Source: Escherichia coli
GTDB taxonomy: Bacteria; Pseudomonadota; Gammaproteobacteria; Enterobacterales; Enterobacteriaceae
DNA: 64,000 nucleotides
NCBI RefSeq assembly: GCF_013122565.1
Contig: NZ_CP053258.1
Strand: one strand, 5' to 3'
A model generated the notes under the pieces. That model was not told the DNA's origin. It ran no database searches and worked only from the letters and a program-made list of their open reading frames with translations. Positions 3,896 to 35,416 of the stretch are shown piece by piece; positions within the stretch are counted from its first letter, which is position 1, and the number at the start of each line of letters is the position of its first letter. The translations under genes and the position numbers were made by a program.

Positions 3896-4243
<348 letters not shown>

Positions 4244-15397: not shown

Positions 15398-16561
15398 ATG
15401 TCTGTAATTAAGATGACCGATCTGGATCTTGCTGGGAAACGTGTATTTATCCGTGCGGATCTGAACGTACCAGTAAAAGACGGGAAAGTAACCAGCGACG
15501 CGCGTATCCGTGCTTCTCTGCCGACCATCGAACTGGCCCTGAAACAAGGCGCAAAAGTGATGGTAACTTCCCACCTGGGTCGTCCTACCGAAGGCGAGTA
15601 CAACGAAGAATTCTCTCTGCTGCCGGTTGTTAACTACCTGAAAGACAAACTGTCTAACCCGGTTCGTCTGGTTAAAGATTACCTCGACGGCGTTGACGTT
15701 GCTGAAGGTGAACTGGTTGTTCTGGAAAACGTTCGCTTCAACAAAGGCGAGAAGAAAGACGACGAAACCCTGTCCAAAAAATACGCTGCACTGTGTGACG
15801 TGTTCGTAATGGACGCATTCGGTACTGCTCACCGCGCGCAGGCTTCTACTCACGGTATCGGTAAATTCGCTGACGTTGCGTGCGCAGGCCCGCTGCTGGC
15901 AGCTGAACTGGACGCGCTGGGTAAAGCACTGAAAGAACCTGCTCGCCCGATGGTGGCTATCGTTGGTGGTTCTAAAGTATCTACCAAACTGACCGTTCTG
16001 GACTCCCTGTCTAAAATCGCTGACCAGCTGATTGTTGGTGGTGGTATCGCTAACACCTTTATCGCGGCACAAGGCCACGATGTGGGTAAATCCCTGTACG
16101 AAGCTGACCTGGTTGACGAAGCAAAACGTCTGCTGACCACCTGCAACATCCCGGTTCCGTCTGATGTTCGCGTAGCAACCGAGTTCTCTGAAACCGCTCC
16201 GGCTACCCTGAAATCTGTTAACGATGTGAAAGCTGACGAGCAGATCCTGGATATCGGTGATGCTTCCGCTCAGGAACTGGCTGAAATCCTGAAGAATGCG
16301 AAAACCATTCTGTGGAACGGTCCGGTTGGCGTGTTCGAATTCCCGAACTTCCGCAAAGGTACTGAAATCGTGGCTAACGCTATCGCAGACAGCGAAGCGT
16401 TCTCCATCGCTGGCGGCGGCGACACTCTGGCAGCAATCGACCTGTTCGGCATTGCTGACAAAATCTCCTACATCTCCACTGGCGGCGGCGCATTCCTCGA
16501 ATTCGTGGAAGGTAAAGTACTGCCTGCAGTAGCGATGCTCGAAGAGCGCGCTAAGAAGTAA
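15398..16561 (+). CDS. pgk: phosphoglycerate kinase
   Basis: 387 aa from [15 protein letters not shown]. Confidence 0.95.
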
Positions 16562-16611
16562 AAAATCACAGGGCAGGGAAACCTGCCCTTGTTTCAGCGC
16601 GCTTTTAGAGC

Positions 16612-16750
16612 ACGCATTTTTTCATACTCTAAATAATTCGAGTTGCAGGAAGGCGACAAGAGAGTGAATCCCCAGGAGCTTACATAAGTAAGTGACCGGG
16701 GTGAGCGAACGCAGACGCAGCACATGCAACTTGAAGTATGACGAGTATAA
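16612..16750. repeat. ERIC/IRU element
   Basis: contains gagtgaatccccaggagcttacataagtaagtgaccggggtgagcg; inverted copy at 31477-31609. Confidence 0.8.
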
Positions 16751-16775
16751 GGCCCGACGATACAGGACAAGAGAC

Positions 16776-17855
16776 ATGTCTAAGATTTTTGATTTCGTAA
16801 AACCTGGCGTAATCACTGGTGATGACGTACAGAAAGTTTTCCAGGTAGCAAAAGAAAACAACTTCGCACTGCCAGCAGTAAACTGCGTCGGTACTGACTC
16901 CATCAACGCCGTACTGGAAACCGCTGCTAAAGTTAAAGCGCCGGTTATCGTTCAGTTCTCCAACGGTGGTGCTTCTTTTATCGCTGGTAAAGGCGTGAAA
17001 TCTGACGTTCCGCAGGGTGCTGCTATCCTGGGGGCGATCTCTGGTGCGCATCACGTTCACCAGATGGCTGAACATTATGGTGTTCCGGTTATCCTGCATA
17101 CCGACCACTGCGCGAAGAAACTGCTGCCGTGGATCGACGGTCTGCTGGACGCGGGTGAGAAACACTTCGCTGCTACCGGTAAGCCGCTGTTCTCTTCTCA
17201 CATGATCGACCTGTCTGAAGAATCTCTGCAAGAGAACATCGAAATCTGCTCTAAATACCTGGAGCGCATGTCCAAAATCGGCATGACTCTGGAAATCGAA
17301 CTGGGTTGTACCGGTGGTGAAGAAGACGGCGTGGACAACAGCCACATGGACGCTTCTGCACTGTACACCCAGCCGGAAGACGTTGATTACGCATACACCG
17401 AGCTGAGCAAAATCAGCCCGCGTTTCACCATCGCTGCGTCCTTCGGTAACGTACACGGTGTTTACAAGCCGGGTAACGTGGTTCTGACTCCGACCATCCT
17501 GCGTGATTCTCAGGAATATGTTTCTAAGAAACACAACCTGCCGCACAACAGCCTGAACTTCGTATTCCACGGTGGTTCCGGTTCTACTGCTCAGGAAATC
17601 AAAGACTCCGTAAGCTACGGCGTAGTGAAAATGAACATCGATACCGATACCCAATGGGCAACCTGGGAAGGCGTTCTGAACTACTACAAAGCGAACGAAG
17701 CTTATCTGCAGGGTCAGCTGGGTAACCCGAAAGGCGAAGATCAGCCGAACAAGAAATACTACGATCCGCGCGTATGGCTGCGTGCCGGTCAGACTTCGAT
17801 GATCGCTCGTCTGGAAAAAGCATTCCAGGAACTGAACGCGATCGACGTTCTGTAA
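16776..17855 (+). CDS. fbaA: fructose-bisphosphate aldolase class II
   Basis: 359 aa from MSKIFDFVKPG. Confidence 0.95.
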   Translation: MSKIFDFVKPGVITGDDVQKVFQVAKENNFALPAVNCVGTDSINAVLETAAKVKAPVIVQFSNGGASFIAGKGVKSDVPQGAAILGAISGAHHVHQMAEHYGVPVILHTDHCAKKLLPWIDGLLDAGEKHFAATGKPLFSSHMIDLSEESLQENIEICSKYLERMSKIGMTLEIELGCTGGEEDGVDNSHMDASALYTQPEDVDYAYTELSKISPRFTIAASFGNVHGVYKPGNVVLTPTILRDSQEYVSKKHNLPHNSLNFVFHGGSGSTAQEIKDSVSYGVVKMNIDTDTQWATWEGVLNYYKANEAYLQGQLGNPKGEDQPNKKYYDPRVWLRAGQTSMIARLEKAFQELNAIDVL

Positions 17856-17877
17856 GTCATTCCTTTCTGCTTATCTC

Positions 17878-17905
17878 AAGGCCCGCTCTGCGGGTCTTTT
17901 TTTCG
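17878..17905 (+). terminator. fbaA intrinsic terminator
   Basis: gcccgctctgcgggtc followed by ttttttt. Confidence 0.6.
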
Positions 17906-18045
17906 CCAAAAGCAAGGTGATACAGATGAGAAATCTGTGATCTATTTGGCAAAATTATGCTTTATTGTTTACCCTTGTCAGACTGCCCGTCATAAGGCGG
18001 CGGAGTGTATTTCTCCATTTTGAGTCAGTTGAAAAGGAATATTGA

Positions 18046-18906
<861 letters not shown>

Positions 18907-19044
18907 TCAACGCTGAGGCCAGATAATACTCTCTGGCCTCTCTCTTATTAGTTTTTCTGATTGCCAATTAATATTATCAATTTCCGCTAATAACAATCCC
19001 GCGATATAGTCTCTGCATCAGATACTTAATTCGGAATATCCAAC

Positions 19045-19680
19045 GTGTTTTCTTATTACTTTCAAGGTCTTGCTCTTGGGGCAGCTATGATTCTGCCGCT
19101 CGGCCCACAAAATGCTTTTGTGATGAATCAGGGCATTCGTCGTCAGTACCACATTATGATTGCCTTACTTTGCGCTATCAGCGATTTGGTCCTGATTTGC
19201 GCGGGGATTTTTGGTGGCAGCGCGTTATTGATGCAGTCACCGTGGTTGCTGGCGCTGGTCACCTGGGGCGGCGTAGCCTTCTTACTCTGGTATGGTTTTG
19301 GCGCTTTTAAAACAGCAATGAGCAGTAATATTGAGTTAGCCAGTGCCGAAGTCCTTAAGCAAGGCAGATGGAAAATTATCGCCACCATGCTGGCAGTGAC
19401 CTGGCTGAATCCGCATGTTTACCTGGATACTTTTGTTGTACTGGGCAGCCTCGGCGGGCAACTTGATGTGGAACCAAAACGTTGGTTTGCGCTCGGGACA
19501 ATTAGCGCCTCTTTCTTGTGGTTCTTTGGTCTGGCTATTCTCGCAGCCTGGCTGGCACCGCGTCTGCGCACGGCAAAAGCACAGCGCATTATCAATCTGG
19601 TAGTGGGATGTGTGATGTGGTTTATTGCCTTGCAGCTGGCGAGAGACGGTATTGCTCATGCACAAGCCTTGTTCAGTTAG
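19045..19680 (+). CDS. argO: arginine exporter
   Basis: 211 aa LysE-family; GTG start. Confidence 0.9.
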
Positions 19681-19772
19681 GCGCTATCTGATGGAAAAAT
19701 AAAACAGAGGCGCTAAGCTTGCCTCCAGAGGTCCTGAATTTTAGGCAAGTCAAATAACACGGAGAGACTAAC

Positions 19773-20513
19773 GTGAAGTTCAAAGTTATCGCCCTGGCGG
19801 CATTAATGGGTATTAGCGGGATGGCAGCGCAGGCTAACGAATTGCCGGATGGACCGCATATTGTCACCTCCGGTACGGCAAGCGTGGATGCGGTGCCAGA
19901 CATTGCCACTCTTGCGATTGAAGTCAACGTGGCCGCGAAGGATGCCGCTACTGCCAAGAAACAGGCAGATGAGCGCGTCGCACAATACATTTCCTTCCTT
20001 GAACTCAATCAGATCGCGAAAAAAGATATCAGCTCAGCGAACTTACGCACCCAGCCAGATTATGATTATCAGGATGGTAAAAGTATCCTGAAAGGCTACC
20101 GTGCTGTGAGAACGGTGGAAGTCACGCTCCGTCAGTTAGACAAACTGAATTCCTTGCTGGATGGCGCGCTGAAGGCGGGTCTTAACGAAATTCGTTCTGT
20201 GTCGCTGGGCGTGGCGCAGCCGGATGCCTATAAAGATAAAGCGCGTAAGGCAGCGATTGATAACGCGATTCATCAGGCGCAGGAACTGGCGAACGGCTTT
20301 CATCGCAAACTGGGGCCGGTATATAGCGTGCGCTACCATGTTTCCAACTATCAGCCCAGCCCAATGGTGCGGATGATGAAAGCCGATGCCGCGCCGGTCT
20401 CAGCCCAGGAAACTTACGAGCAGGCCGCTATTCAGTTTGATGATCAGGTCGATGTGGTCTTCCAGTTAGAACCTGTGGATCAACAACCCGCTAAAACACC
20501 TGCCGCACAATAA
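19773..20513 (+). CDS. yggE: DUF541 periplasmic/oxidative-stress protein
   Basis: 246 aa with signal peptide; GTG start. Confidence 0.9.
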   Translation: MKFKVIALAALMGISGMAAQANELPDGPHIVTSGTASVDAVPDIATLAIEVNVAAKDAATAKKQADERVAQYISFLELNQIAKKDISSANLRTQPDYDYQDGKSILKGYRAVRTVEVTLRQLDKLNSLLDGALKAGLNEIRSVSLGVAQPDAYKDKARKAAIDNAIHQAQELANGFHRKLGPVYSVRYHVSNYQPSPMVRMMKADAAPVSAQETYEQAAIQFDDQVDVVFQLEPVDQQPAKTPAAQ

Positions 20514-20520
20514 TACTTGT

Positions 20521-20553
20521 AGCCCGACGTATTTGTCGGGCTAATGCTTTTAC
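20521..20553 (+). terminator. yggE intrinsic terminator
   Basis: tagcccgac gtattt gtcgggcta followed by atgctttt. Confidence 0.55.
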
Positions 20554-20680
20554 CCGATATTGCCTCCTTTTTCTGTAATTTTCTGTAAAACCATGACGTA
20601 ATCACCTATCTTTGCCCGCAATTTCATCAAGGATAGGCTGACTGAAACGGTTAAGCGGACAAGGATGCGGGGGAGGGAGT

Positions 20681-21577
20681 ATGGACATTTTTATTTCGAA
20701 AAAGATGCGCAATTTCATTTTATTAGCGCAAACCAATAATATTGCCCGGGCGGCAGAAAAAATCCATATGACGGCTTCGCCATTTGGCAAAAGCATTGCT
20801 GCGCTGGAAGAACAAATTGGCTATACGCTATTTACCCGCAAAGATAATAATATCAGCCTCAATAAAGCCGGACAGGAACTGTATCAAAAGCTGTTCCCGG
20901 TTTATCAACGACTTTCTGCGATTGATAATGAAATACATAACTCAGGACGTCGTTCACGAGAAATTGTGATAGGCATAGATAATACTTATCCGACAATTAT
21001 TTTCGATCAGTTGATTAGTCTCGGGGATAAGTATGAAGGCGTGACCGCCCAGCCAGTTGAGTTCAGCGAAAACGGCGTTATCGATAATCTTTTTGACCGT
21101 CAGTTAGATTTTATTATCTCCCCACAGCATGTATCTGCACGAGTTCAGGAACTGGAAAACCTGACTATCAGTGAATTACCACCGCTGCGATTGGGCTTTC
21201 TCGTTTCTCGCCGTTATGAAGAGCGTCAAGAGCAAGAGCTGCTTCAGGAGCTGCCCTGGCTACAAATGCGCTTTCAGAACCGGGCCAACTTCGAAGCAAT
21301 GATTGATGCGAATATGCGACCTTGTGGGATCAATCCAACCATTATTTATCGTCCCTACAGTTTTATGGCCAAAATCAGCGCCGTGGAGCGCGGACATTTT
21401 CTGACGGTGATCCCGCATTTTGCCTGGCGACTGGTGAATCCGGCAACGCTGAAATATTTTGATGCACCGCACAGGCCGATGTATATGCAGGAATATCTTT
21501 ATTCAATCAGAAATCATCGTTATACCGCCACGATGCTTCAGCATATTGCTGAAGATCGTGACGGGACGAGTCATTAA
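20681..21577 (+). CDS. ygfI: LysR-family transcriptional regulator
   Basis: 298 aa, N-terminal HTH. Confidence 0.85.
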   Translation: MDIFISKKMRNFILLAQTNNIARAAEKIHMTASPFGKSIAALEEQIGYTLFTRKDNNISLNKAGQELYQKLFPVYQRLSAIDNEIHNSGRRSREIVIGIDNTYPTIIFDQLISLGDKYEGVTAQPVEFSENGVIDNLFDRQLDFIISPQHVSARVQELENLTISELPPLRLGFLVSRRYEERQEQELLQELPWLQMRFQNRANFEAMIDANMRPCGINPTIIYRPYSFMAKISAVERGHFLTVIPHFAWRLVNPATLKYFDAPHRPMYMQEYLYSIRNHRYTATMLQHIAEDRDGTSH

Positions 21578-23052
21578 CCCAGCATCGAGCCGGTTGCAAT
21601 TAAATTACGGTGTAAGTCGAAGACGTGGCTAAGATCGTGGTGAATATGTCCGCCAGGCGCATTTTCCAGATAGCGATGCAGATAATCCCGATACATAGGA
21701 TGTGCACAATTATCAATGATCGTGCGGGCGCGTTGAAGCGGGGAAAGACCGCGCAGATCGGCGATCCCTTGTTCGGTGATGATCACTTTGACGCTGTGTT
21801 CGCTGTGATCAACATGGCTGCACATTGGCACGACGGTTGAGATCTTGCCTTCTTTAGCAATCGACGGGGCCATAAAGATCGACAGATACGCGTTGCGTTC
21901 AAAATCACCGCTGCCGCCGATGCCGTTCATCAGATCGACCCCGGCTACGTGCGTTGAGTTGGCATGCCCGTAAATATCAAACTCCAGGCCGACGTTCAGA
22001 GCGATGACGCCCAGACGACGGATGATTTCCGGGTTATTGGAAATCTCCTGCGGACGCAACACAATGCGGCTGGCAAAGTAATCCATATTGTCGTAAATCT
22101 TGCGCAGGGAATCGGCCGAGATTGTCAGGCTGGAGGCGCTGGCCCCGCTGATTTTGCCGGTTTCCAGTAAATGCACCACCGATTCCTGTAGCACTTCCGA
22201 ATACATCATAAACGGAGGAATTTCCGGGTTTTCCCCCAGACGCGCCATTACCGCATTATTGATATTGCCCACGCCACTTTGCAGCGGCAGAAATTCCGGC
22301 GGAATACGCCCATGCGCCATTTCCTGCAATAAGAACGTGACCACGTTATCGGCAATCTGCTGGCACATGGGATTTTGCTTATCCAGCATATTACCGGCGT
22401 CGGGCAAGTTGGTTTCCACGACGGCGACAATCTTTTTCGGATCGATTTGCACATAGCGGGTACCGACGCGATCCATTGCATGGAAGATCGACACGCTATT
22501 GCGCCGCGGTGGCGCGCCAGGAATCACAATATCCGCCAGTTCTGCAACGCGCGGATCGTGATAGTGATTGAGTTCAATGATCACTTTCTTCGCTCGCAGC
22601 AGCCAGGTCGGCGCATTACCGATCCCGCTGGTTAACCAGACTCGACCATCTGGTGCCAGTGCCGATGCTTCAATGACGGCAACATCAATGTCGCCGAAGA
22701 AACCGTAATTGACCATTTGCGCCACTTCGCTCAAATGCAGGTCAACGAAACTCACCGCGCCCTGATTGATCTTTTTACGTAAACCGGACGATGTTTGATA
22801 TGGCGCACGCCAGGAAACAGCATCGGCGTCAGAAAGTACATCGTCAGCGGCGGCGCTGATTGACGCCCCCGTCAGCAGGCGAATTTGATACGGCTTTTTG
22901 GCCTCATGCTGTTCGTTAGCTCTGCGGGCAATCGCGGTCGGTAGGGCTTTCGGCGAACCCGCTGGGGTAAAGCCGCTAAATGCCACCATGTCGTTATGCT
23001 GGATAATTTCTGCCGCTTCATCGGCGGTCATCCTTGTCCATTGAGTTTCCAT
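21574..23052 (-). CDS. scpC: propionyl-CoA:succinate CoA transferase
   Basis: 492 aa. Confidence 0.9.
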   Translation of the reverse strand: METQWTRMTADEAAEIIQHNDMVAFSGFTPAGSPKALPTAIARRANEQHEAKKPYQIRLLTGASISAAADDVLSDADAVSWRAPYQTSSGLRKKINQGAVSFVDLHLSEVAQMVNYGFFGDIDVAVIEASALAPDGRVWLTSGIGNAPTWLLRAKKVIIELNHYHDPRVAELADIVIPGAPPRRNSVSIFHAMDRVGTRYVQIDPKKIVAVVETNLPDAGNMLDKQNPMCQQIADNVVTFLLQEMAHGRIPPEFLPLQSGVGNINNAVMARLGENPEIPPFMMYSEVLQESVVHLLETGKISGASASSLTISADSLRKIYDNMDYFASRIVLRPQEISNNPEIIRRLGVIALNVGLEFDIYGHANSTHVAGVDLMNGIGGSGDFERNAYLSIFMAPSIAKEGKISTVVPMCSHVDHSEHSVKVIITEQGIADLRGLSPLQRARTIIDNCAHPMYRDYLHRYLENAPGGHIHHDLSHVFDLHRNLIATGSMLG

Positions 23053-23075
23053 TTTTACTCCTTCGTTCGCAGGGA

Positions 23076-23861
23076 TTAATGACCAACGAAATTAGGTTTA
23101 CGTTTTTCGAGGAAAGCGTTCATCCCTTCCTGGTAATCTTCGCTGTCATAAACCGCGCGGCGCATCCCCTGAATACGTTCAAATTCATCGGAGTTCATGG
23201 TGTGTGCTTCGCCCAGTACACGCAGCTCTTCTTTGATAACGGCAATGGCTAACGGCGCTTTCTCAGAGATGTGGTGCGCCATTTGTAAGGTGAAATCTTC
23301 CAGTTCTTCCACTTCCACAACATGGTTGAGGATGCCGACAGCCAGCGCGCGCTGGGCGGTGATTGGCGAAGCGGTAAAAATCAGCTCTTTGACAATGTGG
23401 AAGCCCGCGTCGCGGGTCAGGTTGTGAATGCCGACCAGGTTATACGGGACGCCGAGGTTTACAGGCGTCATTGAGAAGGTTGAGGTACTGGCGGCGATGA
23501 TCAGATCGGAACTCATGATCATTTCAAATGCGCCACCCCAAACACTACCTTCCACCATCGAAATGATCGGTTTCGGGAATTTTTGGATCATGCGGGTGAT
23601 TTGACGCAATGGATCATCATAGGAGAGCGGATCGCGACCGCCAGACGGCAGTTCGTGAATATCGTGACCTGCGGAGAAGACTTTGGATCCACTCGGCGCG
23701 CGCAAAATGATACAGCGAATTTCCGGCCGGTTGAGATCGCTTAACGCCTGCATAAGATCATCAATAAAGACTTTACTTAAGGCATTAAGTTTTCGGCCAT
23801 AGTTAAACTCAATGACCGCCACTTTGTTGATAGTGGCAACGTTCACATACTGATAAGACAT
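23076..23861 (-). CDS. scpB: methylmalonyl-CoA decarboxylase (crotonase fold)
   Basis: 261 aa from MSYQYVNVATINK. Confidence 0.9.
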   Translation of the reverse strand: MSYQYVNVATINKVAVIEFNYGRKLNALSKVFIDDLMQALSDLNRPEIRCIILRAPSGSKVFSAGHDIHELPSGGRDPLSYDDPLRQITRMIQKFPKPIISMVEGSVWGGAFEMIMSSDLIIAASTSTFSMTPVNLGVPYNLVGIHNLTRDAGFHIVKELIFTASPITAQRALAVGILNHVVEVEELEDFTLQMAHHISEKAPLAIAVIKEELRVLGEAHTMNSDEFERIQGMRRAVYDSEDYQEGMNAFLEKRKPNFVGH

Positions 23862-23871
23862 AAAAATTCCT

Positions 23872-24867
23872 TTAATCAAAATATTGCGTCTGGATAAATT
23901 CACTGAGCTGCCGCAGGCCGGTGCGCGGTGAGAGCGTATTGTTTTTGACCGCTAAAAGCGTCTGGCGGTAATAGCGATCGAAATCTTCATTCGCGAACAG
24001 GTGATTCAGTACTTCTTCTTCGGTCTGCTTACGCAGCCATTCCACCGATTGTTGTTGCCGCACTTGTTGTAAACGACCACTGGCAGTTAGCGCGGTTTTG
24101 AAGTCGATGATGGCGTGCCAGATCTCATCGATTCCACGTTTTTCCAGTGCGCTACAAGTCAGAACCCGTGGCTGCCATTCGTCGTATTTACGTCGCAGAA
24201 TATGCAGGGCACTCTCGTACATATGCCGGGCAATGGCGACATTGGTATGGTTATCGCCATCGTCTTTGTTGATAACGATCAGATCAGCCACTTCCATCAG
24301 CCCTTTTTTAATGCCCTGCAGATCATCGCCGCCACCGGCAATTTGCAACGAGATAAAACAGTCCACCATGCGGGCGACTTCCGTTTCCGACTGCCCGACG
24401 CCAACCGTTTCGACAATCACTACGTCATAACCCGCCGCTTCGCATAACAGCATTAATTCCCGCGCTCGCTGACTGGCACCGCCCAGATGACCGGAGGATG
24501 GTACCGGGCGAATAAACGCCGTCTCGGCACGCGCCAGGTCATTCATGCGGGTTTTATCCCCGAGAATGCTACCGCCAGTGACCGGACTGCTGGGATCGAC
24601 CGCAATAACCGCAACCTTTAATCCATCACGAATCAACAACATGCCAAAGGCTTCAAGAAAGGTACTTTTCCCCGCGCCGGGTGTGCCGGTAACGCCCAGT
24701 CGCAGGGCGTTACCGCAGTACGGCATAATGGCATCAAGCAGTTGCGTACTTAGCGCCTGATGACGCGGGTGACGGCTTTCCACCAGCGTCATGGCCTGGG
24801 CGAGTGTGGCACGCTCACCCTGACGTAAGCGGCGAATACTTTCTGCCAGCGTGGCTTCATTAATCAT
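23872..24867 (-). CDS. argK: MeaB/ArgK-type GTPase of methylmalonyl-CoA mutase
   Basis: 331 aa; P-loop GTPGAGKST. Confidence 0.9.
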
Positions 24868-27004
24868 GATGCTGGCTTATCAGATTCAGTACGTCGCGCA
24901 CGCTGTCGAGCATAGGTGTACCTGGACCATAAATCGCCGCCACGCCGCGCTCTTGCAGGAAGGCGTAATCCTGCGGCGGAATGACGCCACCCGCGACCAC
25001 GCAGATATCTTCGCGTCCCCATTTTTTCAGCGCTTCGACCAGTTCCGGGATCAGCGTTTTATGACCGGCAGCCAGTGAGGATGCGCCCACTACGTGAACG
25101 TCGTTTTCTACGGCCAGGCGGGCGATCTCTTCAGGTGTAGAGAACATCGGGCTTAAATCTACGTCGAAACCGAGATCGGAATAGGCGCTGGCGATCACTT
25201 TCGCGCCGCGATCGTGCCCATCCTGGCCCATTTTAGCGATCAGAATGCGCGGGCGACGACCATTGTCGGCAAGGAACTGCTCCGTTTGCGCAACAATGGC
25301 ATCGAACTCGGAGGCCGATTTCTCAGACTGATGATAGCTTTGCGCAATCACGCCGGTAACACACTGGCTTGGCACCAGATAACGGTCGAAAGCGGCTTCC
25401 AGCGCATCGGAAATTTCACCCAGGGTGGCGCGAACGCGAGCGGCATTAACAGCGGCAGCCAGCAGGTTTTCGTTATGCTGTGCGGCGTGAGTCAGGGCGT
25501 TCAACGCGGCGGTTACGGCGGCATCATCACGGGTGGCGCGAATGCGTTCCAGCGAAGCAATTTGCTCGTTACGCACCATCACGTTGTCGATCTCAAGTAC
25601 ATCGGTTTCGTCTTCGTGATCCAGTTTGTACTTGTTGACACCAACGATGACACGCTTGCCCTGGTCGATCAGCGACTGTTCGCGCGCTGAGGCCTCTTCG
25701 ATCATTCGTTTTGGCAGACCTGCTTCGATCGCTTTCGCCATGCCACCGGCTTCGTCGATCTGTTGGATAATAGCTCTGGCTTGTTTGACGATTTGATCGG
25801 TCAGCGACTCAATGTAATAGGATCCGGCCAGTGGATCGACGGTGCGGCAGAGTTCTGATTCTTCCTGGATGATGATCTGGGTGTTGCGGGCAATGCGTGC
25901 TGAGAAATCGGTAGGCAAACCAAGCGCTTCGTCAAAGGCGTTGGTATGCAGTGACTGAGTACCGCCCAGCGTCGCAGCCAGTGCTTCAATGGTGGTGCGG
26001 ATAACGTTGTTATACGGATCCTGTTCAGTCAGGCTCCAGCCTGAGGTCTGGCAGTGGGTACGCAGCGCCAGTGATTTCGGATCCTGTGCGCCAAATCCAC
26101 TGACCGCTTCGCTCCATAAATAACGTGCCGCACGCAACATGGCGACGTTCATAAACAGATCCATGCCGATGCCGAAGAAGAACGACAGGCGAGGAGCGAA
26201 GTCATCAATTTTCAGTCCGGCAGAGATTGCTGCTTTGATGTACTCAATCCCATCGGCGAGCGTAAATGCTACCTGCTGCACGCAGTTGGCACCCGCTTCA
26301 CCCATGTGGTAACCGCTGATACTGATGGTATTAAATCGCGGCATGTTGCCGGAACACCAGGCGATGATGTCGGCGATAATGCGCATTGACGGTTTTGGCG
26401 GGTAAATATAGGTGTTGCGGCAAAGATACTCTTTGAGGATATCGTTCTGAATGGTGCCGGTCAGTTTATCAGGTGTAACACCTTGCTCTTCTGCGGCGAC
26501 GATATAAAACGCCAGTACTGGTAGCACTGCGCCATTCATGGTCATCGAAACCGACATTTTATCCAGCGGGATCTGGTCGAACAGGACTTTCATATCTTCC
26601 ACGGTGTCGATAGCGACGCCCGCTTTGCCTACGTCGCCCGCCACTCGTGGGTTATCGGAGTCGTAGCCTCGGTGGGTGGCAAGGTCAAACGCAACGGAAA
26701 GACCTTTTTGCCCGGCGGCCAGGTTACGGCGATAAAAAGCGTTGGACTCTTTTGCTGTCGAGAAACCAGCATACTGACGGATGGTCCACGGTTGGGCGGT
26801 ATACATAGTGGCACGCGGGCCACGAACGTAGGGCGGCAAACCAGGAAGGGTACCTGTCACCTCCAGATTATCGAGATCGGCTTCGGTATACAGCGGCTTG
26901 ATGGCGATCCCTTCCGCGGTTTGCTGAACCAGCGAGTCGACAGTTTTCTCCCGACGGCTCAATTCCTTGTTGGCAAGCTGTTGCCACTCCTGCACGTTAG
27001 ACAT
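24860..27004 (-). CDS. scpA: methylmalonyl-CoA mutase (sleeping beauty mutase)
   Basis: 714 aa from [15 protein letters not shown]. Confidence 0.9.
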
Positions 27005-27207
27005 TATTTGCTCCGTAAAACGCAATCAAAATGAGGGTATTTGCGCCTACGGTGAGCTTTTTACGTGGGTTTGTCGCCAGCAAAAAAAATGCATTCAGAC
27101 GTCGTTTTTTGCCGCCTGAGATTTGTCTATTTTGTGATGTGATTCAAGGAATATAAAAAGAAGTGAGGATAACGCCTGATATGTGCTATCAGGCATTATT
27201 TGATGGA

Positions 27208-28101
27208 TTAATCCTGACGAAGGACTTTGTGACCATAATCGAGTAACGCATCAGTGACTTTACGCATCATGCGGCTTTCAGGAGCAAAGCGGTGCCAGTA
27301 GAGCATCCGTCGTTGAAATAGCCCAGGCGTTAAGTCAATCAGTTCGCCGCTGGCCAGCTCTTTCTCTATTTGCAGGTGCGGAATCATACAGCAGGTGGTG
27401 CCCTGGCGAGCAAGTTGCACGAACGCTTCTGAAGAATTAACGATATGGCAGGGTACGCTGCCAGGAGGCAGATCGAAGTTTTGCTGCAAAAAGGCCTGGT
27501 GCATATCGTCAAGATGGTCAAACGCGACCACTGGCGCTTTTAATAATGCCGAACGCGTTACGCCGTTAGGGAAATATTTTTCGGCAAACGGTTTTGAGCT
27601 GACGAACAGATAGTCGAGCGCACCAAGTTTATCGACAAGACAACTCGGCAGCGCCTGATGTTGAATACTCACCGCGCCGACCACTTCGCCGCGACGCAGA
27701 CGTTCCTGAGTGCGGGTTTCATCTTCTACCTGCAAGTTGAGGCGGATAGGCGAGTCAGCCAACACAGGAGCCAGTGCCGGAAGCAACCACGTCGCCAGAC
27801 TGTCGGCGTTGACCGCCAGTGAAAGCAGCAGCGGAGTCGAACCGGTTTGTTCATCACCCAGCCACTCTTCTTCCAGCAACTCCACCTGGCGCAGCAGTGC
27901 CAGCAGTTTTTGCCCTTGTTCCGTCGGGCGCGGCGGTACGGTACGCACCAACAGCGGCTGCCCGAACATATTTTCCAGTTGCTTAATGCGCTGTGAGACG
28001 GCTGATTGTGTAATGCACAGCTTTTGTGCCGCGCGCTCAAATCCTCGTTCACGTATCACCGCATCCAGTGCCTGTAATGTTCTGTAGTCCGGGCGTTTCA
28101 T
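27208..28101 (-). CDS. argP: LysR-family regulator ArgP/IciA
   Basis: 297 aa. Confidence 0.95.
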
Positions 28102-28170
28102 TGCTGTTGTCTGCTCCTGGTAAATGCTTTTTCCGCACTATGACACAATTTTGCGTTGGGTACAGAGCAT

Positions 28171-29496
28171 TTAACGCATACAAAAGCGGTCGTAATGGAA
28201 GTTTTGGCTGGCAATCCCATTTTCATATAACCCTTTGCTGAGCGCTTTGGCAAAACTCTGTGGGCCGCAAAACCAGAAATGGGTGTCACCTTTATTTGCT
28301 ATTTTATCAGCAAGATAGTGCGACTGTAGGCGCTCACCTTTATGCGCATCAAGCAGATGCAGTGTGACACTGGCCAGGGCACAAAGTGAGGTAAGTTTAT
28401 CAACATACCATGCATCCTCGCTTCGGCTGACGCAATACCAGAGATCCACAGGAACACGGGACGCGCCATGCTGGTTCAGATACTCAAGCTGGGCGATAAA
28501 GGGGGTAATGCCGATGCCTCCAGCTATCCATACCTGGCGGGAGCAAGGGAGAGTAAAATCAAACTTTCCCCATGGCCCTTCAACGATGGCGGACTGGCCG
28601 ATTTTTATCGAGGATGCAAGGGTAGAGGTATAATCCCCTAAATTTTTGATGGCAAAGCGCAACGTGTTCTTCTCTATTGCATATGAAGCGATAGTAAAAG
28701 GGTGAGATTCTTTACTGTGTGCGAACGTTAAGAATGCAAACTGACCCGGAGAATAGTCGATGGCATGTTCCAGCTCCAGTATGACTTCGGTAATTTGTCC
28801 CGGATGGTTAACAATACTTTTAATGGTGGCCTGATGCTTGTTTTTATTACCGTTTAATTTCAGCAGCGAAATGAAAGCCGCAAAGACGCCTGGGATGGTA
28901 ATTAAAATTAATAAATACGCCGCAGGAGTTTCCCACCAATATGATTTAAACAAAGCAGTAAACACATGAAAGGCAATTGCCAGATAAAAAACAGGGAACA
29001 AACGGTGAACAAGATGAAATAAATGATAGGGAACCTTTTTGCTTAGAGACACGAAAACCATCGCTATCATAATAAACATTGCACATTCACCCGCTAACAG
29101 TCCCGCATGAAGCCAATTTTCTTGTACTGGCGTCAGGTTAATATCAACGATTTTACCAGGGTGAGTAAGCCAGCAAAAGGCGACGAATAACTGGGGTAAT
29201 TTTTCATCCAGCCAGTGGGTGAAAGCAAAAGCTATGGCGCATATTCCTGCCCACTTATGTAATCGCCACGCTTTATCCAGACCGCCCAGCACTTTGTTAA
29301 ACCATGATGAACGCAGCGATAAACACATCGTCAGCGTCATCAGACACCACGCAAGGGTTCCCGTAAAAAAGAGTATGTTTTGTCGAAGGAACCATATTAG
29401 CGCGATTGGCTTTTCACGAAAAATATCACCGGACGACAAAAAAATAAGGCATGTGACAAAGCAAACCAATGTACCTGTAAGATTAGCTTTTTTCAT
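28171..29496 (-). CDS. ferric-reductase-like membrane flavocytochrome (TM domain plus FAD/NAD(P)-binding domain)
   Basis: 441 aa; N-terminal polytopic His-containing helices, C-terminal ferredoxin-reductase-like fold; AT-rich by eye. Confidence 0.6.
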   Translation of the reverse strand: MKKANLTGTLVCFVTCLIFLSSGDIFREKPIALIWFLRQNILFFTGTLAWCLMTLTMCLSLRSSWFNKVLGGLDKAWRLHKWAGICAIAFAFTHWLDEKLPQLFVAFCWLTHPGKIVDINLTPVQENWLHAGLLAGECAMFIMIAMVFVSLSKKVPYHLFHLVHRLFPVFYLAIAFHVFTALFKSYWWETPAAYLLILITIPGVFAAFISLLKLNGNKNKHQATIKSIVNHPGQITEVILELEHAIDYSPGQFAFLTFAHSKESHPFTIASYAIEKNTLRFAIKNLGDYTSTLASSIKIGQSAIVEGPWGKFDFTLPCSRQVWIAGGIGITPFIAQLEYLNQHGASRVPVDLWYCVSRSEDAWYVDKLTSLCALASVTLHLLDAHKGERLQSHYLADKIANKGDTHFWFCGPQSFAKALSKGLYENGIASQNFHYDRFCMR

Positions 29497-29557
29497 TTTT
29501 TATTTCATTTTGGCAGAGGAGCATAGAATAGTTCCATGCTCCCGTTAAACAGGGTGA

Positions 29558-29818
29558 TTATTTATAGAAAATTACAGTGGCGTGGATATAATTTTTACCG
29601 GAGAAAGAACTGATGTAGTAATTACTGGCTTGCAATTCTTCCGCTTTCTCTTTGATTTGACTTTCAACGCCCGCTGGATTGCTATTGTGTGTGGAAATAC
29701 TCACTTTTGATATCTGTTCAAGATTATTGTCCGGTTTTTGTATCTCGGTTGCTGCAAATACGTGTCCTGTGAGAGTGCAAAGAAATAACGCGGCAAATAA
29801 ATTTTGCTTAATAGACAT
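29558..29818 (-). CDS. DUF1471 (YdgH/BhsA/McbA-family) secreted small protein
   Basis: 86 aa with signal peptide MSIKQNLFAALFLCTLTGHVFA. Confidence 0.6.
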   Translation of the reverse strand: MSIKQNLFAALFLCTLTGHVFAATEIQKPDNNLEQISKVSISTHNSNPAGVESQIKEKAEELQASNYYISSFSGKNYIHATVIFYK

Positions 29819-29834
29819 AATAACTCCTTTTATA

Positions 29835-30464
29835 TTAAAGAAAATGATTAAATACTTGTGTAATAAGATCAGGGATTTGCGCTAATGCATTTTGCTCGGC
29901 GAGTTCGCGTCCCGGTTGGGTTTTGTCGACGCCTTCCGCACGTAAAATATGTGTATTGGTAATGCCCATTAATTTCAGCGTGGCTTGCAGGTAACTTTCC
30001 TGATGATCCAGCGCCAGATGTGCTTTATCGCAATAGATACCGCCGCGCGTCGAGACAATAAACGTCGGTTTATCCGTCAGTAACCCAACGGCACCAGCGG
30101 AAGTAAAACGAAACGTTAAACCAGCCTGACAGACCTGATCTATCCAGGTTTTGAGGCCAGATGAAACGCTGTGATTAATCATCGGCGCGCCAATAATGAG
30201 CACATCGCACGATGCCAGTTCTTCAATAGCGGCGTGAATCCCATTCACCTCCTGCTGAATTTGTGCGTTCTCGCACTCCGCTTTACCGCAAAGCGCCAGA
30301 AAGGTTTCTTCACGCAAATGGGGCGGCGGCGTCAGGCCGACGTCGCGATGAATAATTGTGGCTTGCGGAAAGTGTTGGCAAAGCGCTTCTACCAGCGCCT
30401 GGCTTAATTTCCGCGAACTTGAATGCTTAAGCATTGGGCTGCTGTCGATATGGAGAATTTTCAT
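29835..30464 (-). CDS. FMN-dependent NAD(P)H azoreductase/quinone reductase-like flavoprotein
   Basis: 209 aa; flavodoxin-like fold pattern MKILHIDSSP...LIIGAPM.N. Confidence 0.65.
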   Translation of the reverse strand: MKILHIDSSPMLKHSSSRKLSQALVEALCQHFPQATIIHRDVGLTPPPHLREETFLALCGKAECENAQIQQEVNGIHAAIEELASCDVLIIGAPMINHSVSSGLKTWIDQVCQAGLTFRFTSAGAVGLLTDKPTFIVSTRGGIYCDKAHLALDHQESYLQATLKLMGITNTHILRAEGVDKTQPGRELAEQNALAQIPDLITQVFNHFL

Positions 30465-30564
30465 GGGCTTGCTCTCGTTTCTGCGATGAGAGAAGTTTAA
30501 CTGTTGTTGATATGGTGATTAAATAGACATAATTGAACTTCATTGTTGTGAAAATAGAACAATC

Positions 30565-31461
30565 ATGATCGACTGGAATGATTACTACTACTTTGCCCTG
30601 ATTGCCGATGAAGGCAGCTACAGCCAGGCGGCGCTGCGTGCGGGCGTGTCGAAATCGGTATTAAGCCGACGAATGGCTGCGCTGGAGGAGCGCCTTGGCG
30701 TACGGCTTATTCAGCGAACTACGCGGCGTCTGGCCCTGACGGCGGAAGGCGAACAGTTTGCCGTCGAATGTCGGGCGCTGGTGGCGCAGGGGGAACGGGC
30801 CAGAGCGGTGGTGATGGCCGCCCAGGAAAGCCCACAGGGAATGCTGCGCGTCAGCGCACCGGTATTTATGGCTGAAACATGGTTTGGTGAGTTTGTCAGT
30901 GAGTTTATCGCCCGCTGGCCCCTGGCGAAGGTGCAACTGCTGGCAATTAATCGCCCGGTGGATATGGTCGCTGAAGGCATTGATATTGCGCTGGTTACGG
31001 CTTCCGGCGCGCTTGCGGACTCGACGCTGCATTATAAAAAATTACATACCCAGGCCGATATTTTAGTTGCCAGTTCGCAGTGGCTGGCCCGCCATCCGCA
31101 GGTGAAGGTCATTGACGATCTTAACCGCGTTGACGGGATCCTCCGCCTGACGAACAATGGCGGGAGCCAGTGGCAGTTAATTAATGGCGAACAGGAGATT
31201 ACGCTGCAACCCGAGGCTCGTTTGCAGACGAATAACATTCGCGTCATGTTGCAGGCAGTGCTTGGTGGGAATGGCGTGGCGTTATTGCCTCAATTTGCCT
31301 GTAAACAGGGGCTTGCGAACGGTGAATTGGTGCGCCTGTTTGCACCGTGGAGCGGCATACCCAGACCGTTGTATGCTTTATTTGCGGGGCGAAAGGGGAT
31401 GCCCGCCATTGCGCGATATTTTATGGATGAGTTATCTGTACGGCTTGCCAACGGGGTCTGA
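30565..31461 (+). CDS. LysR-family transcriptional regulator (divergent from the redox operon)
   Basis: 298 aa; likely intact counterpart of K-12 pseudogene yqfE (from memory). Confidence 0.7.
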   Translation: MIDWNDYYYFALIADEGSYSQAALRAGVSKSVLSRRMAALEERLGVRLIQRTTRRLALTAEGEQFAVECRALVAQGERARAVVMAAQESPQGMLRVSAPVFMAETWFGEFVSEFIARWPLAKVQLLAINRPVDMVAEGIDIALVTASGALADSTLHYKKLHTQADILVASSQWLARHPQVKVIDDLNRVDGILRLTNNGGSQWQLINGEQEITLQPEARLQTNNIRVMLQAVLGGNGVALLPQFACKQGLANGELVRLFAPWSGIPRPLYALFAGRKGMPAIARYFMDELSVRLANGV

Positions 31462-31476
31462 CTCGCTTTTTTTGTA

Positions 31477-31609
31477 TATACTCGTCATACTTCAAGTAGC
31501 ATGTGCTGCGTCTGCGTTCGCTCACCCCAGTCACTTACTTCTGTAAGCTCCTGGGGATTCACTCTCTTGTCGCCTTCCTGCAACTCGAATTATTTAGAGT
31601 ATAATGCGT
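31477..31609. repeat. ERIC/IRU element, inverted relative to 16612-16750
   Basis: reverse complement aligns nearly base-for-base with the pgk-fbaA copy. Confidence 0.8.
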
Positions 31610-31639: not shown

Positions 31640-32299
31640 ATGACGCAGGATGAATTGAAAAAAGCAGTAGGATGGGCGGCACTTCAATATGTTCAGCCCG
31701 GCACCATTGTTGGCGTAGGTACAGGTTCTACCGCCGCACACTTTATTGACGCGCTCGGCACGATGAAAGGCCAGATTGAAGGGGCGGTTTCCAGTTCGGA
31801 CGCTTCCACTGAAAAACTGAAAAGCCTCGGCATTCACGTTTTTGATCTCAATGAAGTAGACAGCCTTGGCATCTACGTCGACGGCGCAGATGAAATCAAT
31901 GGTCACATGCAGATGATCAAAGGCGGCGGCGCGGCGCTGACCCGTGAAAAAATCATTGCTTCGGTTGCAGAAAAATTTATCTGTATTGCAGACGCTTCCA
32001 AGCAGGTTGATATTCTGGGTAAATTCCCGCTGCCAGTAGAAGTTATCCCGATGGCACGTAGTGCAGTGGCGCGCCAGCTGGTGAAACTGGGCGGTCGTCC
32101 GGAATACCGTCAGGGCGTGGTGACCGATAATGGCAACGTGATCCTCGACGTCCACGGCATGGAAATCCTTGACCCGATAGCGATGGAAAACGCCATAAAT
32201 GCGATTCCTGGCGTGGTGACTGTTGGCTTGTTTGCTAACCGTGGCGCGGACGTTGCGCTGATTGGTACACCTGACGGTGTCAAAACCATTGTGAAATGA
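31640..32299 (+). CDS. rpiA: ribose-5-phosphate isomerase A
   Basis: 219 aa from [12 protein letters not shown]. Confidence 0.95.
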
Positions 32300-33839: not shown

Positions 33840-33959
33840 TCCCTTCTCCACACTGTTGCCGCGTTGCGCATTCTACTTTGCGAGTCTGCTCCAGAAAATA
33901 AATCAAAGTCAGATCAATGCGTTGTGTTTATTTAATGGGGATTTACGATGGCAGGACAG

Positions 33960-34100
33960 CACAGGGCTGTAACGGTAAAGCCCTCACCGAAGCGAGGGCT
34001 TGAAGGAGAAGGGTTATGATGCGACTTGTCATCATACTGATTGTACTGTTACTGATAAGTTTCGGAGCTTATTAACAGTCAGTCTCAGGGGAGGAGTCAT
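33960..34100 (-). ncRNA. sibC: Sib-family antisense sRNA (approximate boundaries)
   Basis: inferred from Ibs ORF position and family architecture; ends not mapped. Confidence 0.35.
34016..34075 (+). CDS. ibsC: Ibs-family type I toxin (19 aa, MMRLVIILIVLLLISFGAY)
   Basis: below ORF-track size cutoff; near-identical to recalled IbsC. Confidence 0.8.
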   Translation: MMRLVIILIVLLLISFGAY

Positions 34101-34352
34101 CCTCCCTTACCCTTACTCACTAAATTAGGTCAAAGAATCAACGATGTCAATCAGGGCGATGCGGGGTGCATCGCCCTGAACCGATCTTTTTGATAGCCAC
34201 ATCATCGCCCGCGTTTACTGCTGCAATAAATCCCTTTTCCCTGCAATGTATGTCTGCCTTACATGACGTTTTACGAGTGCACTCGAAGAAAAGATTTAAA
34301 GGCAGATCAATGCGTTGTGTTTATTTAATGGGGATTTACGATGGCAGGGCAG

Positions 34353-34493
34353 CATGGGGCTGTAACGGTAAAGCCCTCACCGAAGCGAGTGCTTGAAGGA
34401 GAAGGGTTATGATGCGACTTGCCATCATACTGATTGTACTGTTACTCATAAGTTTCCCAGCTTATTAACAGTCAGTCTCAGGGGCGGAGTCAT
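34353..34493 (-). ncRNA. Sib-family antisense sRNA, second copy (approximate)
   Basis: by analogy with copy 1. Confidence 0.3.
34409..34468 (+). CDS. Ibs-family type I toxin (19 aa, MMRLAIILIVLLLISFPAY)
   Basis: small ORF in second repeat copy; three residues differ from copy 1. Confidence 0.75.
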   Translation: MMRLAIILIVLLLISFPAY

Positions 34494-34568
34494 CCTCCCT
34501 TACCCTTACTCACTAAATTAGGTCAAAGAATCAACGATGTCAATCAGGGCGATGCAGGTGTGTCGCCC

Positions 34569-35190: not shown

Positions 35191-35374
35191 GGGAATCTCC
35201 GAGATGCCGCCGCAGGCTGTAACCCTTGAACCCTTGGTTCAAGGTGAATGTGTCGTCGCAGTTTTAAGGCTTCTCGGACGGACCGAGCATGCTCACCAAC
35301 CGCGGAGCGCCACATTCTTGTGGTATGAAATATCGGCTCAGGGGACTGGCCCGCTTGCGAACATCTCAGAGAAA
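35191..35374 (-). ncRNA. ssrS: 6S RNA
   Basis: reverse complement reads ATTTCTCTGAGATGTTCGCAAGCGGGCCAGTCCCCTGAGCC...CGGAGATTCCCT, matching 6S RNA as recalled. Confidence 0.9.
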
Positions 35375-35416
35375 TTTTGTCTTCACGGTTACTCTACCAC
35401 AGTAAACCGAAAAGTG

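Follow-up and report, generated by a model that had tools for sequence, protein, structure and literature searches.

Two oppositely oriented ERIC (IRU) elements in the pgk-fbaA and LysR-rpiA spacers of Escherichia coli, most probably with separate histories

The ERIC/IRU pair

Two ERIC (IRU) elements were found in opposite orientations in the 64-kb window of this study, that is, in the whole stretch of E. coli DNA that was analyzed. One of them, copy A, is located in the pgk-fbaA spacer, and the other, copy B, in the spacer between a LysR-family regulator gene and rpiA. With little doubt, the two are best explained as canonical MITE copies that share only their family membership, have separate histories and lie in opposite orientations incidentally. 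The element family is already known and the arrangement of the pair is incidental. As such, the pair is of little significance, because ERICs have been known since 1990–91 and copy A is the resident K-12 copy. The results add three points. Population-scale evidence allows a plausible-sounding inversion hypothesis to be put aside, two ORF calls running into the ERICs can be flagged as spurious, and copy B illustrates how a MITE can lie in nature within the core promoter of rpiA, a housekeeping gene, where it would rebuild the −10 hexamer.

A repeat search of the whole window identified a single long inverted pair, whose arms of 126 nt each were 98% complementary and 14,727 nt apart. The arms were copy A at 16624–16749 on the + strand and copy B, in its short 127-nt form, at 31477–31602 on the − strand. 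When copy A was compared directly with the reverse complement of copy B, 123 of 126 bases were identical. The three mismatches, at element positions 62, 74, and 105, divide the arms into perfect runs of 61, 11, 30, and 21 nt. When the element was searched against the whole window with a sensitive blastn, no third ERIC copy was identified. The other matches were all 25 nt or shorter with E > 0.2, and the pair is therefore a real repeat rather than a product of chance. The initial annotation had described nearly identical ERIC/IRU elements in opposite orientations in these two spacers and had proposed their alignment as a check; the alignment (123/126 identical, longest perfect run 61 nt) and the ERIC core sequences of both copies bear this description out. 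The extents given there, 16612–16750 and 31477–31609, were slightly too wide, as the alignment placed 16612–16623 and 31603–31609 in unique flanking DNA (~12 nt at copy A and 7 nt at copy B).

The ERIC, IRU or RU-1 elements of Enterobacteriaceae (Sharples & Lloyd 1990; Hulton et al. 1991) are summarized in a review as small units with terminal inverted repeats, TA termini, target duplication and a highly paired transcript (PMC2229807). The ERIC unit size of ~127 bp was matched by the shared arms of 126 nt and by the net 123 nt that the filled site of copy B has over the empty one inside a TA run. Copy A contained an exact ERIC1R site at 16664–16685 and an ERIC2 site with one mismatch at 16686–16707. 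Conversely, copy B contained an exact ERIC2 site at 31519–31540 and an ERIC1R site with one mismatch at 31541–31562. In both copies, the two core sites were adjacent and arranged as expected for ERIC. The ERIC1R and ERIC2 sequences used were those of the standard ERIC primers, which was confirmed against the literature, where the two appear jointly in 246 papers.

In RNA folding, both copies formed a single long imperfect hairpin in both orientations, with free energies ranging from −35.5 to −46 kcal/mol and z-scores ranging from −4.3 to −5.9. None of 200 shuffles folded as well in any of the four strand/copy combinations. The hairpin of copy A had a free energy of −44.2 kcal/mol (z = −5.9), and the z-scores for copy B were −4.3 to −5.9. 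The element ends were TATACTC...GAGTATA. The empty site of copy B was GTATATAATG, which fits insertion at TA with duplication, the (TA)n target leaving the break point ambiguous; for copy A, there was no empty allele to compare. Both copies are intergenic. Co-transcription of copy A follows from the absence of a transcription start site in its spacer (PMC2759082), and for copy B we infer transcription. A scan of the window at the Rfam gathering thresholds returned nothing over either copy, and the copies were therefore assigned to the family by their primer/core sequences, their fold and their insertion-site structure.

The two copies share with ERIC/IRU/RU-1 the length of ~127 bp, the ERIC1R/ERIC2 core, an imperfect palindrome with a long stem-loop and probably, as far as the (TA)n target lets the ends be placed, the TA termini. 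They also share the intergenic location within or beside transcription units, the occurrence of filled and empty alleles between strains and the existence of longer variants, with ~70 nt inserted internally, that other strains have at this locus. Nothing substantial was found to differ. Long ERIC variants with ~70-nt inserts at fixed internal positions are reportedly a known feature, said to have been described by Sharp & Leach in 1996 and by Wilson & Sharp in 2006.

Three ORFs that run into the elements were also examined. ORF 31184–31546 overlaps the LysR gene out of frame and continues into copy B. ORF 16680–17654 lies antisense to fbaA, with its end within copy A, and ORF 16622–16906 is similar to it. 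No Pfam match was found for any of the three. The initial annotation had regarded 31184..31546 and part of 16680..17654 as spurious ORFs created by the ERICs. That they run into the elements was correct, but the ERICs are not their main source, as they supply the last ~23 codons only. The three ORFs are spurious, and ERIC adds only their last codons.

Copy A in the pgk-fbaA spacer

Copy A is located between the stop codon of pgk (16561) and the ATG of fbaA (16776). The upstream gene, pgk, was placed at 15398..16561 on the + strand from an ORF ending at 16561 and from the length and annotation of the collinear K-12 locus. The downstream gene, fbaA, was placed at 16776..17855 on the + strand from sequence and annotation; it relies on promoters farther up the operon. 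Of 5,426 complete E. coli genomes, 5,414 matched a 251-nt query centered on copy A in a single collinear stretch, and the element of K-12 differed from copy A by a single SNP. Copy A is the copy that K-12 also has; it is old and fixed in the pgk-fbaA spacer.

Olvera et al. found no transcription start within the 214-nt pgk-fbaA spacer, and fbaA relies on promoters further upstream (PMC2759082). Because the spacer has no promoter, copy A should be transcribed within the epd-pgk-fbaA mRNA. When the RNA of the whole spacer was folded, the hairpin of copy A was kept and lay between a G+C-rich hairpin and the ribosome-binding region of fbaA. The G+C-rich hairpin, at 16570..16589 on the + strand right after the pgk stop and seen both in the sequence and in the spacer fold, looks like a terminator or attenuator. 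In a terminator scan, its stem scored as terminator-like on the opposite strand, which was the sole terminator-like call around both copies.

Within this mRNA, the hairpin of copy A could alter the stability or processing of the flanking segments. Reports on Yersinia summarized in PMC2229807 and PMC10969869 describe ERICs that change the stability of flanking mRNA segments via RNase E in an orientation-dependent manner. Similar to the mRNA-decay ERICs of Yersinia enterocolitica (De Gregorio et al. 2005, as given in PMC2229807 and PMC10969869), copy A is located between co-transcribed genes and would form a hairpin in the mRNA. By analogy with these elements, the most likely role of copy A is in the stability or processing of the flanking mRNA. 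In the Yersinia accounts, orientation is reported to decide the effect, and copies A and B of the window would enter their transcripts in opposite orientations. Different from the Yersinia model as outlined in these sources, in which an RNase E site becomes accessible when the ribosome completing the upstream gene melts the stem, the pgk stop is 62 nt upstream of copy A and another hairpin intervenes. Ribosome unmasking of the Yersinia type is therefore an unlikely trigger at copy A. A literature search returned no E. coli experiment on copy A.

Copy B, the rpiA promoter and the accessory redox module

Copy B is located between the stop codon of the LysR gene (31461) and the ATG of rpiA (31640), and it starts 16 nt after the LysR stop. 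The LysR-family regulator upstream of it (298 aa; 30565..31461, + strand; Pfam HTH_1 and LysR_substrate) is encoded by the last gene of an accessory redox module. The downstream gene, rpiA (31640..32299, + strand), was assigned from sequence, ORF and annotation. With a 281-nt query centered on copy B and a coverage of at least 80%, the site was filled in 66 of the 5,426 complete E. coli genomes. In the remaining genomes, the query matched as two pieces with 123 nt less between them, so that the site is cleanly empty. For instance, the empty site of K-12 reads TTTTTTTGTATATAATGCG and the corresponding window sequence reads TTTTTTTGTA[TATACTCG...TTTAGAG]TATAATGCG, which fits insertion at TA with duplication, with a break point that is ambiguous within (TA)n. 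The locus was empty in K-12, O157:H7 and a relative of CFT073. The comparison with K-12 proposed in the initial annotation thus showed copy A to be present in that strain and the copy B site to be empty.

Outside the 66 genomes, Escherichia sp. MOD1-EC7003 had copy B at the same site and equally oriented; this lineage is distinct at the species level and ~95–96% identical to the window over the locus. The site was also filled in one metagenome contig. At this one site and in one orientation, the element occurred in three nested sizes, which were 127 nt, 127 nt plus 71 nt, and 127 nt plus 78 and 71 nt. The 127-nt form was that of the window, SCU-172 and MOD1-EC7003. Strain 06-00048 had one internal insert of 71 nt, and E2348/69 had inserts of 78 and 71 nt on either side of the core. 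The loci compared were 31477–31605 of the window, 16060–16325 of L002, 340–700 of L004, and 1390–1620 of L003. The three size forms suggest one old insertion at the rpiA site that was followed by internal deletions or insertions. In addition, the neighbors of copy B varied. They included an intact LysR gene, a 231-nt remnant of the yqfE type and shorter remnants, such as the truncated LysR gene of E2348/69. As copy B occurs beside both intact and truncated LysR genes, it is either older than the LysR deletions or has been moved between lineages by homologous recombination. Thus, copy B is an old and rare presence/absence polymorphism, and its insertion was separate from that of copy A.

The (TA)n run in which copy B lies overlaps a TATAAT hexamer 34 nt upstream of the rpiA start codon. 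This hexamer, at the right junction of copy B (31600..31605, + strand), is presumed to be the rpiA −10. It is common to the empty and the filled rpiA alleles and was kept by the insertion. For rpiA, Hove-Jensen & Maigaard (1993) reportedly described a −10 region that is well conserved and located 34 bp ahead of the start codon, and TATAAT at 31600–31605 matches that position. When filled and empty alleles were aligned, a TATACT hexamer (31477..31482, + strand; a 5/6 match to the −10 consensus) was found at the left junction; measured from the upstream DNA, it takes exactly the place of the TATAAT of the empty allele. A consensus scan found no sigma-70 consensus promoter at either junction of copy B or around either copy, and the native upstream region of rpiA is without a recognizable −35.

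The insertion of copy B may have been tolerated because the TATA end of the element would rebuild TATAAT at the right junction and leave TATACT at the left. Two outcomes can be envisaged. The old rpiA promoter could fire into the element and produce a structured leader that would be ~125 nt longer, or the retained −10 could work together with upstream DNA derived from the ERIC. As a promoter −10, TATACT at 31477–31482 is putative, its function being read from the sequence. That an ERIC in the rpiA core promoter measurably changes rpiA expression, via either a hybrid promoter or a structured 5′ UTR that is ~125 nt longer, is more likely than the presence of an inverted subpopulation, which is considered below. 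As an old polymorphism in three nested sizes, copy B could also serve as a small test case for effects of ERIC on expression.

The accessory redox module consists of four genes between argP and rpiA (28171–31461). The first encodes a protein of 441 aa with ferric-reductase-like, FAD-binding and NAD-binding domains. The second encodes a small DUF1471 protein and the third a flavodoxin-fold, FMN azoreductase-like protein of 209 aa, and they are followed by the LysR gene. The full module was present in 232 of the 5,426 complete E. coli genomes. Only a minority of E. coli genomes carry an intact LysR gene; in K-12, all that is left of the module is the yqfE pseudogene, a remnant of this gene. The module allele of the window was at most ~97% identical to that of any complete genome, and MOD1-EC7003 was found to be without the DNA corresponding to 28664–29698 of the window.

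The initial annotation had also emphasized that the second ERIC directly flanks the redox module. The adjacency itself is real, whereas a link between the two is not apparent, because each is commonly found without the other. Of the 232 genomes with the module, about 224 had an empty ERIC site (97% coverage in two pieces), and about 58 of the 66 genomes with copy B, such as E2348/69 and 06-00048, were without an intact module. The adjacency of copy B and the module is therefore positional and not functional. It could be argued from the distance of 16 nt to the LysR stop that copy B is part of the module, being either a scar at its boundary from the time when the module was gained or lost or an element that regulates the LysR gene. 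The module and copy B also occurred together in ~8 among the genomes listed, where ~3 would be expected if they were independent. Such an excess, however, is small and is what shared ancestry would produce, and no ERIC was found at the other edge of the module, at argP. Given also the two sets of genomes that carry one without the other, membership of copy B in the module is very unlikely.

The enclosed segment and its orientation

The segment between the two copies (16750..31476; no strand assigned) was annotated from its ORFs, Pfam matches and the annotation of the collinear loci of K-12 and SCU-172. It contains fbaA, mscS, argO, yggE, srsR/ygfI, scpC-scpB-argK-scpA and argP, followed by the redox genes, which encode the ferredoxin-reductase-like, DUF1471, FMN azoreductase-like and LysR proteins. 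The order and orientation of the genes matched those of K-12, SCU-172 and the metagenome contig L007. The identity between the window and K-12 was 96.0–100% per 1-kb bin across the shared genes of the 14–46 kb region, which identifies the DNA as E. coli. On the K-12 map, the locus is at 3.06–3.07 Mb, with epd, pgk and fbaA on the minus strand.

Some smaller differences were observed along the way. In SCU-172 (L005 3146–4558), argO is interrupted by an IS1 within the segment and srsR is frameshifted; the segment of this strain thus tolerates disruptive events, yet no inversion was seen. The window also contains two tandem 174-nt repeats at 3896–4243, which are 98% identical and each match the ES036/CssrF sRNA model. 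A 131-nt relative of these repeats (88% identity) is present in the fbaA-mscS spacer of K-12 (L001 5339–5469) and missing from that spacer in the window. It represents another small repeat with presence/absence polymorphism.

As two inverted MITE copies enclose a block of genes, the pair could be viewed as the borders of a composite, transposon-like mobile unit, comparable to segments that are enclosed by two MITEs. Gene-mobilizing composites bounded by two MITE copies have been described for Tn3-derived elements, according to PMC13367494. However, the enclosed genes are core genes found in the same place and order in K-12, which is without copy B. Moreover, copy A is fixed and copy B is rare, and no second location of the segment was found in any search. 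The block was neither variably present nor at several locations but belongs to the core genome at a fixed position. The probability that the pair bounds a mobile unit is close to nil, and the composite-transposon reading was rejected, as the enclosed genes are core and fixed in place.

The initial annotation had further proposed the inverted repeats as a potential substrate for recombination-mediated inversion. Recombinant junctions were searched for with two queries, one joining the reverse complement of the fbaA 5′ region, the ERIC and rpiA and the other joining the pgk 3′ region, the ERIC and the reverse complement of the LysR 3′ region. In an uninverted genome, these queries can reach a coverage of at most 58% and 67–68%, respectively, in one place; in an inverted genome the coverage would be 100%, and the cut-off was set at 80% or more. 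At this cut-off, neither query found a recombinant junction in any of the 5,426 complete E. coli genomes, which are consensus assemblies and blind to rare inverted subpopulations. The parental junctions were found in 5,414 genomes for copy A and in 66 for copy B. The true test of inversion is therefore 0 of the 66 genomes with both copies and not 0 of 5,426. The inverted junction was also not found among 100,044 GTDB species representatives or in metagenome contigs in gapped exact-pattern scans, whose positive controls recovered one locus each and which had little power. Hence, only one orientation was found among genomes (0/5,426 for either junction; none in the representatives or the metagenome contigs), and, for fixed arrangements, this is the outcome that the initial annotation had named as refuting the inversion.

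Whole-segment alignment gave the same result. SCU-172, which has both copies and the module and is the sole genome with both copies that was aligned over the whole segment, was collinear with the window from 15.9 to 45.1 kb. The metagenome contig L007, which covers the copy B side, was likewise collinear. Inverted repeats are present at both ends of the segment (126-nt arms, 98% complementary). No recombinase or invertase gene was found in or beside the segment, where all genes are annotated as housekeeping or redox genes.

The minimum homology for RecA-dependent exchange is ~25–30 bp, and 61 nt is above this minimum and far below efficient lengths. RecA-dependent recombination between the copies, whose longest perfect run is 61 bp, is thus chemically possible. 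With break points in the ERICs, epd-pgk would read into the antisense strand of the LysR gene. The inverted fbaA would be divergent from rpiA, with only the ERIC and the rpiA leader upstream of it. Inversion would therefore part fbaA, an essential gene, from the epd/pgk promoters, which are its only known ones. In experimental data sets, fbaA has been scored as essential (PMC4086706).

An inversion would also bear on the direction of transcription relative to replication. Judging from the positions of oriC and the terminus, epd, pgk and fbaA are presumably co-directional with replication, and inversion would then turn fbaA, mscS, argO and yggE head-on. Because fbaA would be cut off from its promoters and co-directional genes would be turned head-on, the product of an inversion should be strongly counter-selected. 

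It could still be held that RecA does act on the ERIC pair to invert the 14.7-kb segment from fbaA to the LysR gene, so that populations contain two chromosomal isoforms. The copies are inverted and 98% identical over 126 nt, and their perfect run of 61 nt exceeds the minimal RecA homology. Moreover, inversion of segments enclosed by Correia repeats has been reported for Neisseria in a 2017 study, as cited in PMC10969869. In that system too, it has been proposed that inverted MITE copies serve as substrates for inversion and thereby change how nearby genes are expressed. According to the same source, however, both orientations were observed in Neisseria, whereas one orientation was found here in all 5,426 genomes, and the segment here comprises 14.7 kb of housekeeping genes. 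Besides, no recombinant junction was found in 5,426 genomes, including the 66 with both copies, and the window is collinear with both SCU-172 and L007. The shared stretch is short and three mismatches break it, the essential fbaA would be detached from its only known promoters and no recombinase gene adjoins the segment. A working inversion substrate is thus highly improbable. It is likewise highly improbable that, in strains with both copies, rare RecA-dependent exchange yields a minority subpopulation with the inverted segment. If such a subpopulation existed, fbaA would be transiently uncoupled from the epd/pgk promoters and the upstream region of rpiA would be changed. The opposite orientation of the two ERIC copies is incidental.

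Finally, two further features were noted in the window. A tandem duplication at 33877–34165 and 34270–34558 is 92% identical between its units, each of which contains a SIB antitoxin RNA (Rfam RF00113). Two sib/ibs type I toxin-antitoxin cassettes are therefore present between serA and fau, where K-12 has only ibsC/sibC. In addition, 6S RNA (ssrS) was identified at 35192–35375, downstream of zapA as expected, which confirms the synteny of the region with K-12.
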